64,000 nt of DNA from an uncultured Candidatus Binatia bacterium (GTDB lineage Bacteria > Desulfobacterota > Binatia > Bin18): NCBI GenBank assembly GCA_965200965.1, contig OZ241744.1:736001-800000 (forward strand). Direction: 5' to 3'. Below the pieces are notes generated by a model. It saw only the letters and a program-made list of their open reading frames with translations. It had not been told where the DNA came from and did no database searches. The translations under genes were made by a program, and so were the position numbers. Shown piece after piece: positions 53,214-57,003 of this stretch (the stretch's first letter is position 1; every line of letters begins with the position of its first letter).

Positions 53214-54068
53214 ATGCTGACAACCGGGCGTGACCTGATCAGGCTGATGCGTCCCAAGCAGTGGGTCAAGAACAGCTTTGTTCTGGCTCCGCTGGTCTTT
53301 GCCGGGCAGTTTACCACGCTGGTGTTGATTGGTGAGACGCTGCTGGCCCTGCTCCTGTTCAGTCTGGCCTCGTCTGTGGCCTACATCATCAACGACTTCC
53401 ATGACATTGAGCATGACCGCAGGCATCCGGCAAAATCGAGGCGTCCCTTGGCCTCTGGAGATGTCTCGAAGCCACAGGCCCTCGGCTTGTCAGGCGTACT
53501 TTGTGGGGTGCTGGGCTGGGGCTGTTTTCAGCGACCCAGCGTTATGCTGGTAATTCTGGCCTATCTGGGGTTGAGCCTTTTCTACACATTTGTCCTGAAA
53601 TATCAACCAGTTATCGATATTTTTGGCATTGCCACAGGCTTTGTCCTGCGGGTCTATGCGGGTGCGGTGGCGGTGGCCGTGCCGGTCTCGTCGTGGATGT
53701 TTGTGACGACCTTGTGCCTGGCCTTATACCTCGCGGCCGTAAAGCGTCGCCAGGAGTTGATGCAGAGCGGGAGAGAAGGGCGTCCGGCCCTGGAGCAGTA
53801 TTCGGTCACGCTGCTAGACCGCTACGCCGAGATGGCGGCCACTGGAGCCTTGCTGTTCTATAGCCTGTTTGTGGTGACCGTTCGCCCTGCACTGGTCGTC
53901 TCCATCCCCTGTGTGCTGTACGGCTTGTTCCGCTACTGGTTTGCAGTCGAGGCGAGGGGAAGCGGAGAATCCCCAACGGATGCCCTGCTGTCAGACTGGC
54001 ACCTCCTGGTGACGGCCCTGGTTTGGGCCGGTATTTGCGTGTGGGCTGTGTGGCCGACCGGAGGCTGA
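53214..54068 (+). CDS. Polyprenyl-phosphate phosphoribosyltransferase (UbiA family, mycobacterial Rv3806c-like)
   Basis: [48 protein letters not shown]. Confidence 0.85.
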
Positions 54069-54321
54069 GGCGGGGCGGCTACTCATCAACAGAGAAGCGG
54101 CCTTCCCAGATGGGGCCTGCCCCGGGCACATACTGGCCGGTCCTGATGGACCTGAGGGCGTACTTGGGGAGTTCGCGGATCGCAAGGCATTGTTGCCCGG
54201 CCTGCCGGCCGGCCTCTGTGAAGCGAAAGTCAAGGTTGTCGAACCCGTACTGCTGGCGATTGTCGGGCAGGTCGTTCTCGTCAACCGGGATCAGGTGCAG
54301 GAAGAATATGGGGTCCATGTC
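54032..54321. repeat. 290-bp direct repeat, copy 1
   Basis: Matches 56714-57003 with three mismatches by eye. Confidence 0.93.
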
Positions 54322-56670
54322 ATCTCCGCCGCATGGCTCTTTAACATATATCAGGGCATTTTTGTTGATATAAATATCGTATTTGGAGCGGAGGATGGGC
54401 TGGCCGGCCTCTGTGATCAGTCTGTCAAGATCTGCCAGGCTTGGCCGTGCCAGCATAACGTGGTCAAGCATGATGTGACCTCCGTGACTTCGTTCATGGT
54501 CAAAGAGTTCCAGTTGTAGACGCTTGCCGGCGACGGCGGATAGTGGGGAGACGATCAGGTCGAACTCTTCAGCACGCTCGCCGCTTGGGCTGCTCCACTC
54601 GCCAGCCCCGTACCAAACCGCAGCTTCTTCGCCATCGGCCAACAAACGCAACCCGACACGAGACCCCGATCCACCGGCGAGCAGAAATACCAGAGATTGG
54701 TCGGCTTTTGCGGTGAACGCTGGCGAGAGCGCCTTTCCGGTAGTCTTATCGCCGTGGTCTGGGTGATAGCTCGTCAGAAAGCCGGGGCCAACATGCCCGA
54801 AAATCGGCAGTTGGCCCGTGTAGAATGTCTGCTGGCCGTGGTTGGTCATTGCCTCGCCTGTGACCTGCCAGCCGTCCATGCCACCCTCGAAGCGTCCGAG
54901 AAACTGCTCGCCAACAAAGTGGAAGTAAGGCTTGACGCTGAAACGATTGTCGGCAGGCCGGGTCATCGAAAAGCGGCTCCTGGCCCGCAGGTCGCGGCCG
55001 ACAAAATGCTCGTTGACCCACTGATGATCGCCAGCACTAAAGGGCATCCATAGCTCGGGGCCGATTTTCAGAGCATAGTGTGCGCTGGCGAGGGCCTCAG
55101 CTTGGTTGGAGGCAGAAGGATAGGGACGAAAGTTGACGCCGCGTCGCTGGAGATATCCCGGGGGAGGAAAGCGGTCGTGTGCCATGATCCGCTCGTGGTT
55201 GGGACGCGTGACCGGATTGTGCGCCACCGTCGCGTCAGCCAAACCATTGACGTCAATGATTGTCAGGTCTCGGAGATAATAGGGCGAGACGCCAATGGAG
55301 GCGAGGGCTGCCACGGCATTGTCGGGAATCACCCCAGGTTCCAGCTTCTCGTACTCCTTCCATCCCGCTATCCGCTCGGTGAGCGCGTGTTGGAAAAGCC
55401 CGGCGCGTAATCCGACGAACTGGCGGGCAGACTGCTCGCGCAGGGCGTTGGAGATGGCGACGAGTGCTGGCATCCCCGGCGCGGTGAGCAGCCAAGCCGC
55501 GTTCTTTTCATTGAGTTCGATGGAGAGCCTGCCGGGGAGGAAGCGAAGCCCGTCGTCTTTGAACAGTAAAGCGCCTTGAAGTGCGCCAGCATAAAACAGC
55601 ACTGGCACAAAGAGAACCAGGCTGAACGCCCTCGGTCCGGCCCACCGGGTCCATGAAGAAGTCGTTCGGAGGCGATTCGATATCCCGGAGGCGAGGTGCG
55701 TGATGCCCTCGGCTCCGGGGACCGCCAGTAGAGGCCAGTAAAAGTCCAGCGGGCGATACTCAAAAACATCGCCGCCTATGCGCATCAGGTAGAGTACATG
55801 GAAGGAGATGCAGAGCAGCCCCAGGGCGTAAGTCCCGTCTCTATAGCCTATCCAGCGTTTTCGCACGGCCACGCACGCGAGTGGAATTAGCAGGTATAGG
55901 CCGGTCTCCAGCACCGCGGCCCAGAGATAACGAAAGCCGGACTCGTACCACGGTCGCACATGCTTGGCATAGTAGGTATTTGGCAGCCATGCGCCGTAAT
56001 ACCCGTAGCGGAACAGAAAATGGGCTGCGATAAGGACGAAGAACGGCCCTGCCAGAAATATCGCCTCCCGCCAGTCCAGCCGGTGGGCGGTGAGGAGACG
56101 GTGGGCGGCGAACCAGCCGAAACAGCAGGCCGCCAGCATGAGACCCTCGGGGCGGGTCAGGGCGGCGGCAGCCAGGCTCAGCGACGCTATCAGCAGTCCC
56201 CAGGGCCTGTCTCTGTGAATGCCCAGGCAGACCACCGCCACGACAATGAAGAACGTAAATTGCCGCGTTTCCAGTCCGCCGCCCGAGGTCCATACGGCAA
56301 AGGTCGCGCTGCTGCACACCAGACCCAGCCCCATCCAGGCGACGAGGCCCCTGTTCGGCAGGGAGGGCATCCGGGCGATCCACCACAGCATCACGGCCAC
56401 AGTTCCGCCTGTGTAGCCTACCGATAAGCACGGCGCGGCGTCTTCCGGGCGCACGCCAAGGATTCCCCATATGGCCGCAAGCTCCAGAATCCACAGGAAG
56501 TTGGTATAGCCCTCCACATACTCGCCCGGATTGAACACCAGGCCGTTGCCCTCGATCAGGTTGCGGGCGTAACGAAAGCTGATGAAGGCGTCATCGGTGA
56601 AAAACTCGGCCACCCCGGCGAGCCCCCCCAGTAAGGCCAACCACGGCAGGCAGCATAGAAGGTGGGTCAT
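54079..56670 (-). CDS. GT-C-fold membrane glycosyltransferase (arabinofuranosyltransferase-like) with periplasmic C-terminal domains
   Basis: TDDAFISFRYARNL..G.GLVFNPGEYVEGYTN, GLET, LTRPEG, LPNTYYAK, GGDVF..R, ID.NGLAD. Confidence 0.75.
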   Translation of the reverse strand: MTHLLCCLPWLALLGGLAGVAEFFTDDAFISFRYARNLIEGNGLVFNPGEYVEGYTNFLWILELAAIWGILGVRPEDAAPCLSVGYTGGTVAVMLWWIARMPSLPNRGLVAWMGLGLVCSSATFAVWTSGGGLETRQFTFFIVVAVVCLGIHRDRPWGLLIASLSLAAAALTRPEGLMLAACCFGWFAAHRLLTAHRLDWREAIFLAGPFFVLIAAHFLFRYGYYGAWLPNTYYAKHVRPWYESGFRYLWAAVLETGLYLLIPLACVAVRKRWIGYRDGTYALGLLCISFHVLYLMRIGGDVFEYRPLDFYWPLLAVPGAEGITHLASGISNRLRTTSSWTRWAGPRAFSLVLFVPVLFYAGALQGALLFKDDGLRFLPGRLSIELNEKNAAWLLTAPGMPALVAISNALREQSARQFVGLRAGLFQHALTERIAGWKEYEKLEPGVIPDNAVAALASIGVSPYYLRDLTIIDVNGLADATVAHNPVTRPNHERIMAHDRFPPPGYLQRRGVNFRPYPSASNQAEALASAHYALKIGPELWMPFSAGDHQWVNEHFVGRDLRARSRFSMTRPADNRFSVKPYFHFVGEQFLGRFEGGMDGWQVTGEAMTNHGQQTFYTGQLPIFGHVGPGFLTSYHPDHGDKTTGKALSPAFTAKADQSLVFLLAGGSGSRVGLRLLADGEEAAVWYGAGEWSSPSGERAEEFDLIVSPLSAVAGKRLQLELFDHERSHGGHIMLDHVMLARPSLADLDRLITEAGQPILRSKYDIYINKNALIYVKEPCGGDDMDPIFFLHLIPVDENDLPDNRQQYGFDNLDFRFTEAGRQAGQQCLAIRELPKYALRSIRTGQYVPGAGPIWEGRFSVDE

Positions 56671-56713
56671 GCGGACTTTTTGCAGTGTGGCGAGACAGTT
56701 TGTCACAATTGTC

Positions 56714-57003
56714 TATTTGCGTGTGGGCTGTGTGGCCGACCGGAGGCTGAGCCGGGGCGGCTACTCGTCAATAGAGAAGCGGCCTTCCCAGATGGGGCCT
56801 GCCCCGGGCACATACTGGCCGGTCCTGATGGACCTGAGGGCGTACTTGGGGAGTTCGCGGATCGCAAGGCATTGTTGCCCGGCCTGCCGGCCGGCCTCTG
56901 TGAAGCGAAAGTCAAGGTTGTCGAACCCGTACTGCTGGCGATTGTCGGGCAGGTCGTTCTCGTCAACCGGGATCAGGTGCAGGAAGAATATGGGGTCCAT
57001 GTC
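56714..57003. repeat. 290-bp direct repeat, copy 2 (includes an orphan copy of the last codons of the UbiA-family gene)
   Basis: TATTTGCGTGTGGGCTGTGTGGCCGACCGGAGGCTGA...GGGGTCCATGTC, offset 2682 bp from copy 1. Confidence 0.93.

Follow-up and report, generated by a model that had tools for sequence, protein, structure and literature searches.

The closest described counterpart of the rearrangement analyzed here is insertion with long target duplication (Furuta, Abe and Kobayashi 2010; PMC2853133). According to the part of that paper available to us, its repeats reach ~420 bp and often lie over a start or stop codon, the cases come mostly from competent species, and in one of them genes were fused through an intragenic repeat; the cargo consists of restriction-modification genes, and double-strand breakage by the cargo was suggested as a cause. 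Recombinase-free hotspots of horizontal gene transfer (Oliveira et al. 2017; PMC5635113) and a transformation-triggered tandem duplication in Streptococcus pneumoniae (Johnston et al. 2013; PMC3784515) have also been described, again as far as the available parts of those papers go. The present study concerns a 64,000-nucleotide stretch of contig OZ241744.1 (positions 736,001 to 800,000; here called the window, whose positions are used below), in which two genes for predicted GT-C glycosyltransferases, GT1 and GT2, end in the same 290-bp direct repeat. GT1 is a real gene whose presence varies between strains, and it likely entered an ancestral dprE1-dprE2-GT2-ubiA locus by an insertion that brought no recombinase and doubled 290 bp of target sequence.

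Every positional property named in the available part of PMC2853133 is found at this locus: the duplication is longer than 30 bp and unique (290 bp, two copies), the insert is smaller than 20 kb (2,392 nucleotides of unique sequence in a unit of 2,682), relatives have a one-copy empty site, and there is no other mobile element. As in those cases, the insert is small, the duplication covers a stop codon, the target gene is intact, and a fusion occurred within a gene. Unlike them, the cargo here is a GT-C glycosyltransferase without a nuclease, and the crossover would have used a protein domain common to cargo and target. Restriction and modification genes, which define the search in that paper rather than the rearrangement itself, are not the cargo here, and neither GT1 nor GT2 matched a PADLOC model. 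Since the positional properties all agree and the cargo differs, we regard this as the same rearrangement with non-restriction-modification cargo. The class is thus already described, and because the layout also recurs in this genome around unrelated cargo, it is not a device specific to glycosylation. As in the hotspots of PMC5635113, accessory genes turn over between conserved neighbors without an integrase; four gene contents or orders were found between dprE2 and ubiA. As in the available account of the pneumococcal system, unequal crossing-over can set two alleles in tandem; however, that system needs preexisting repeats and spans 100 to 900 kb, whereas here the event would create the repeat and the unit is 2.7 kb.

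The two repeat copies (Table 1) are offset by 2,682 nucleotides and differ at only three sites (54070, 54085, and 54090); the identical stretch reaches 293 nucleotides in three other strains. No third DNA copy was found in the single-contig 3.62-Mb genome, and the orphan ubiA tail between the two glycosyltransferase genes is a 100% match to the 3' end of ubiA. The original prediction, made from the letters of the window, had described this repeat with its three mismatches, its offset, and the orphan tail, and all of these were verified. It had also called the two genes dissimilar apart from a shared tail of ~80 residues. The tail stands, but the dissimilarity does not reach up to the repeat, since homology begins ~30 residues before it at lower identity. 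The repeat corresponds to the C-terminal three quarters of a ~110-residue domain common to GT1 and GT2, with its inner edge lying inside that domain. BLASTP aligned the two proteins at 62% over 181 columns (GT1 residues 697 to 875), and blastn lengthened the repeat match to 338 nucleotides at 89%. A 9-pair hairpin and an 8-bp palindrome at 56686-56712 lie right at the new junction and the GT1 start. Predicted promoters and terminators were at chance level (3 versus 2.4 and 7 versus 7.6, respectively).

Thirteen sequencing runs contain the stretch, five of which are recorded as sponge metagenomes. Eight were examined (X3, X6, X9, X11, and X13 were left out), and the cover of X7 was too thin for a call. 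X1, X2, and X4 come from study P1, X5 from P2, X8 (perhaps the sample from which the window came) from P4, and X10 and X12 from two samples of P5. In the four filled runs, the repeat collapses to a single contig of 290 to 293 nucleotides at 1.7 to 1.9 times the flank depth, and the cassette has the depth of the flanks. The values for the two flanks, cassette, and repeat contig were 41.3 and 43.7, 45, and 75.3 in X8; 11 and 11.2, 10.8, and 18.6 in X1; 10.5 and 11.3, 10.6, and 20.8 in X2; and 6.5 and 5.8, 5.6 to 7.6, and 10.9 in X4. The 5' end of GT1 continues into the orphan ubiA tail, and not into dprE2, in all four (X8 record 27, X2 record 17, X1 record 5, and X4 record 13). The original prediction had named a chimeric assembly of two strain alleles among the findings that would refute it, and the contigs at the new junction do share no more than 30 letters with the repeat, which is the unitig overlap and one under the bridging rule used. 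However, the equal depth of flanks and cassette, with the repeat at nearly twice that depth, suits a single chromosome with the tandem arrangement in each of the four runs, which represent two studies, and together with the junction to the orphan tail it leads us to reject a chimera as scarcely credible. A 50:50 mixture of GT1-only and GT2-only alleles was also considered; it would double the depth of ubiA and dprE2 relative to each glycosyltransferase gene, which was not observed.

Contigs of X10 and X12 connect 54090 to 56773, and a contig of X5, which is ~4% diverged, connects 54070 to 56753; each joint skips exactly 2,682 nucleotides, and no long contig on GT1 was present in these three runs. 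The sister species G007 likewise has dprE2-GT2-ubiA with one repeat copy and without GT1. The one-copy product that recombination between the repeats was predicted to leave therefore exists in nature, and the strain comparison shows a cassette that is filled in X1, X2, X4, and X8 and empty in X5, X10, and X12. A replacement of 89 nucleotides by 95 at 57244-57334, within GT2, is common to filled X2 and empty X10 and is missing from X1 and X8, so that the presence of the cassette reassorts independently of the GT2 allele.

The body and the tail of GT1 have different relatives. The body is 72 to 76% identical in DNA to GT1 of the more distant relatives L028, G005, and L031, whereas the last ~120 codons are 86% identical to window GT2, 75% to GT2 of G007, and 58 to 60% to GT1 of those same three relatives. 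In the tail tree, window GT1 groups with window GT2, then with GT2 of an X5-like contig (support 99/97), and then with GT2 of G007. A single clade of all eight GT1 tails was rejected in an approximately unbiased (AU) test on 18 rows, with two long-branch rows of the tree left out (p-AU 2e-50). Because the GT1 tail is nearer to resident GT2 than to other GT1 tails while the body is nearer to distant GT1, gain is the simplest reading. Judged from these alignments, the last 80 residues of GT1 are most likely a copy of the resident GT2 tail attached to a body akin to GT1 of distant Binatia. This points to one-way gain in preference to two-way cycling, with the repeat as an insertion scar. The tail had originally been read as the constant anchor of a set of cassettes; tail identity, the tree, and the AU test favor instead a scar left by copying the GT2 tail onto the incoming GT1.

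We propose that incoming GT1 DNA from another Binatia-like donor would have fused in frame with the resident allele at 54321/54322, inside the homologous tail domain, and that the GT1 5' end would have joined nonhomologously at 56713/56714, 37 nucleotides inside the 3' end of ubiA, a junction without visible extended microhomology to the ubiA side. One homeologous and one nonhomologous join could then be resolved via a circular intermediate or by unequal exchange between sister chromosomes, with the same end product as a Campbell insertion-duplication. The duplication would leave ubiA and GT2 whole and make GT1 the gene that follows GT2 within one predicted operon, where it would add a second transferase for lipid-linked pentofuranose (probably arabinofuranose) at the cell surface; RecA-type recombination between the repeat copies would cleanly excise it again. 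The insert consists of the one glycosyltransferase gene, with no recombinase, and the genome encodes ComEC and DprA.

Table 1. Positions of the repeat, the inserted segment, and the genes of the locus in the window
Feature	Position	Strand	Remarks
ubiA-family polyprenyl-phosphate phosphoribosyltransferase (DPPR-synthase-like)	53112..54068	+	NCBIfam NF008978, 209.2 bits (cut-off 207); Pfam UbiA; last 37 nt in repeat copy 1
Repeat copy 1, 290 nt: ubiA 3' end, 10-nt gap, last 80 codons of GT1	54032..54321		
GT1, inserted gene	54079..56706	-	875 aa from GTG at 56706; in databases 863 aa from the next ATG
Unique inserted segment, 2,392 nt	54322..56713		Absent from X5, X10, X12, and G007; no recombinase gene
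Diverged first part of GT1 tail domain, homeologous to 57004-57098	54322..54416	-	blastn and alignment; inferred crossover zone at border with repeat
Repeat copy 2, 290 nt: orphan ubiA tail, gap, last 80 codons of GT2	56714..57003		
Orphan 37-nt ubiA 3' end	56714..56750	+	Left edge 56713/56714 is the new nonhomologous junction, 7 nt from the GT1 GTG start
GT2, resident GT-C gene with the same tail domain	56761..58788	-	675 aa as called in databases; longest open reading frame to 58905
DprE2-like SDR reductase	58790..59614	-	NF053786, 211.9 bits, under cut-off 250
DprE1-like FAD oxidase	59530..60834	-	NF053785, 381.4 bits, under cut-off 500

Several other histories were weighed against a single insertion. 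The original prediction held that the locus works as an accordion that diversifies surface glycosylation. In an active form of this model, a 2,682-bp circle would be excised at an appreciable rate and would then reintegrate or enter empty strains, and such cycling could follow a gain as a second step. Its strain variation and its empty allele were both found, while the history now indicates one-way gain; we consider active cycling doubtful, though it is the most plausible of the alternatives. The independence of the cassette from the GT2 allele fits it, as does an isoleucine/valine variant at the third-last residue that is reciprocal between the copies (valine in GT1 and isoleucine in GT2 of the window, the opposite in contigs of 659,055 and 130,461 nucleotides), since excision and reentry at different crossover points would swap it. 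However, gene conversion, exchange of the whole locus between alleles, or assembly phasing would give the same swap, the protein pairs are joined only through contigs of equal nucleotide count, and cassette depth equals flank depth in all four filled runs with usable cover, which leaves no large empty or circle subpopulation. Neither a circle nor excision within a sample was seen in the short-read contigs, which would reveal neither. Ongoing excision and reentry are therefore only hinted at by the swapped variant. It is unlikely that the tandem arose in two steps, by allelic replacement of GT2 with a GT1-only allele carrying the resident tail and then unequal crossing with a GT2-only allele. 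Relative L028 does have a GT1-only allele at the same locus, and other loci of this genome resemble two alternative alleles in tandem (A-x-B-A-y-B), but a GT1-only allele with a resident-type tail was absent from the eight runs examined and the 54 family genomes searched.

It is less probable still that both genes are ancestral, with tails homogenized by gene conversion and every empty allele a loss. G005 and L031 have both genes, and tails from one genome tend to resemble each other more closely (the G005 pair is 82% identical over 342 nucleotides, and one further within-genome pair groups at 85/81). However, G005 and L031 have the opposite order, dprE2-GT1-GT2-ubiA, and no orphan ubiA tail, and the two nearest outgroups, X5 and G007, are empty, so that this history requires two or more losses as well as a change of gene order. 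It is very improbable that a recombinase acting in trans carried out a site-specific integration at an att-like site. The clean one-copy empty site is what att recombination would leave, but the 290-bp repeat is protein coding and unique in the genome, and the other repeats of the genome (53 to 406 bp) are unrelated to it in sequence. The element neither contains nor adjoins a recombinase gene, and a genome-wide search of the tyrosine family found only two members in 3.62 Mb, both of XerC/XerD size, at 1.55 and 1.62 Mb and more than 700 kb from the locus; the genome-wide search did not extend to serine recombinases or transposases. The number of tyrosine recombinases is low for a genome with many defense cassettes.

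Insertion of GT1 into the ancestral locus, which we still favor, has points against it as well. The genome has MutS homologs, which would disfavor a homeologous crossover. The direct donor of GT1 was not found, the closest GT1 bodies being 73 to 76% identical in protein, and the two genes of G005 and L031 leave room for a two-gene ancestor. The AU test shows a general exchange of tails between GT1 and GT2 and does not date the event in the window, and the empty state of X10 and X12 fits a cassette never gained or one lost. The proposed pentofuranose role also draws on DprE1, DprE2, and AftB scores that lie under their cut-offs, and no GtrA-type flippase was found in the genome. Two further lines of evidence were abandoned. 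The three repeat mismatches do not prove that X10 and X12 are secondary excisions: GT2 of the X5-like contig ends in F-D-E, as in G007, and valine occurs in filled and empty strains. Concerted evolution read from the collapsed repeat contigs of X1 and X4 (T at 54151/56833 and 54207/56889) is unusable, as such contigs drop variants (that of X8 lost three known mismatches).

Beyond these strains, the closest loci with a taxon label, L031 and L035, belong to Candidatus Binatia. No orphan ubiA tail was found in L028, G005, or L031. GT1 homologs at 43 to 69% identity occur at 34 genome loci in records of Chloroflexota, Acidobacteriota-type, Latescibacterota, Spirochaetia, and Alphaproteobacteria, often in tandem and with or without the tail domain; this spread over unrelated phyla (L028 to L064, mostly metagenome-derived genomes) suggests wide horizontal exchange. 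Duplicated fragments of ubiA, dprE1, or dprE2 flank glycosyltransferase genes in 5 of 11 related loci of other genomes. In L019 and L020 (G014), L063, L018 (G006), L037, and L068, glycosyltransferase arrays are interleaved with such duplicated fragments, and a short open reading frame of L020 fuses the start of dprE1 to the end of ubiA.

The mycobacterial DPPRS-DprE1/E2-Aft/Emb pathway and a three-component system of Citrobacter add lipid-linked pentofuranose (Kelly et al. 2024; PMC11127046). As far as the available part of that paper describes them, the window locus is like these pathways in combining a polyprenyl phosphoribose synthase, a predicted DprE1/DprE2-like epimerase pair, and GT-C enzymes that carry additional extracytoplasmic beta domains, and unlike them in having neither 5'-phosphatase nor flippase within the locus and in that GT1 and GT2 match no family above its cut-off. 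The ubiA gene faces an apparent operon of DprE1-like, DprE2-like, GT2, and GT1 genes; the call of polyprenyl phosphoribose synthase for ubiA is above the NF008978 cut-off, and the adjacent DprE1 and DprE2 homologs (E values of 8e-114 and 1e-62) are under the curated ones. GT1 is predicted to consist of a GT-C membrane domain, a carbohydrate-binding-module (CBM)-like beta domain at residues ~590 to 755, and an Ig/FnIII-like tail domain at ~764 to 873, and its D38-D39 pair is invariant across 104 aligned homologs. The top Foldseek matches of its model (predicted local distance difference test [pLDDT] score of 80) are EmbA/B/C, AftB, ArnT, and AftA (E values of 5e-9 to 2e-4); weak CBM35-like matches probably reflect the middle beta domain. 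The AftB model NF041481 scored 31.3 bits against a cut-off of 1,050, with the match limited to residues 32 to 75, and GT2 gave only weak matches to glycosyltransferase-family hidden Markov models. No match to the GtrA-type flippase family PF04138 was found in the genome; MATE-type flippases were not searched. The gene content (ubiA, dprE1/2, and two GT-C genes) predicts a polyprenyl-phospho-arabinose module, which by analogy with the described pathways would synthesize lipid-linked pentofuranose and transfer the sugar on the outside of the membrane. The earlier assignment of both genes to GT-C agrees with this prediction of a donor pathway for surface glycans.

The tail domain, modeled as a confident beta sandwich (pLDDT of 94), is present in 64 copies in 29 open reading frames of the genome, a count that the original prediction had proposed making; a repeat at the DNA level was found at the window locus only. 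Twenty-six of the 29 reading frames lie in two tandem arrays, each of 13 PMT_2-like GT-C genes, most of which have two to four copies of the domain. The arrays (C1:271736-305618 and 1131749-1165338; L069, L070, L072, and L073) are ~95% identical to each other over 1.1 kb, and some of their reading frames are truncated. Across 62 members, no Pfam family matched the domain apart from two single weak matches; there was no sequence match in the PDB and no Foldseek match at an E value of ≤0.001. The best VIA Z, 7.3 to generic Ig/FnIII sandwiches, indicates only a common fold, and atlas matches were 0.83 or lower. Literature searches, with subscription papers and supplements outside their scope, yielded no relevant paper on this glycosyltransferase family in sponge symbionts. 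As a speculation that we consider rather unlikely, sponge symbionts of many phyla may trade and stack GT-C genes by using the Ig-like tail as a portable in-frame handle, with circles that cycle in and out and vary surface glycans between strains of one symbiont without a recombinase, and the 13-gene arrays as an expanded end state.

Self-comparison of the genome outside six skipped repeat-rich regions gave 43 local direct repeats, 23 of which, including that of the window, were chosen as bracketing unique DNA. The 22 others have a similar layout around cargo, and 12 of 18 cargo proteins scanned match PADLOC defense models. In three of seven loci compared with relatives, the segment is absent in G007; the other four show partial deletion or broken synteny relative to G007 and G004. 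Placement over stop codons (12 of 23, versus 9.0 ± 2.2 at random placement with a crude set of open reading frames) was not significantly enriched. At C1:2250004-2255043 (L076), a pterin-dehydratase gene is duplicated at 100% (406 bp) in the layout A-methylase-B-A-HsdR_N-B; G007 holds only the first, methylase half and G005 only the second, HsdR_N half, as alternative alleles that stand here in tandem. At C1:451261-458160 (L074), three interleaved repeats follow tmRNA-nudC around NYN, SDH-protease, and AAA/DUF3226 cassettes, and the G007 counterpart has one nudC tail and the cassettes in a different order. C1:2879035-2882430 (L078) reads A-TIR/RNase H-B-A-NYN-B; the NYN unit is missing from G007, and both units are missing from G004. 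At four more loci (C1:1882695-1885268, 1914218-1916180, 2400919-2403279, and 2970058-2971754), DarG-like, unknown, AAA-ATPase, and Fic cargo is bracketed by short 3'-end duplications of leuB, thrS, tldD, and an amidohydrolase gene.

The GT1 locus provides a population-verified case of recombinase-free gene gain with non-nuclease cargo, and it argues that host recombination, rather than breaks made by the cargo, suffices for insertion with long target duplication. It also catches domain grafting at the moment of gene capture, and it points to an expansion, in sponge symbionts, of GT-C genes with an unnamed tail domain that is undescribed in the literature searched. Such an expansion is a candidate source of strain-specific surface glycans and could affect recognition by phages or hosts; in Pseudomonas aeruginosa, according to the part of the preprint available, arabinosylation of pilin blocks pilus phages (bioRxiv 10.1101/150227).

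Two other features of the window were noted. An 18-bp tandem repeat at 46761-46891 encodes a His/acidic linker of what we take to be an outer-membrane protein, beside a presumed metal ABC transporter and a Fur-like gene. At 51130-51443, an open reading frame that we take to be rplX-like (L24) adjoins two genes presumed to be rpmG- and rpmB-like, at a distance from the main cluster of ribosomal protein genes.

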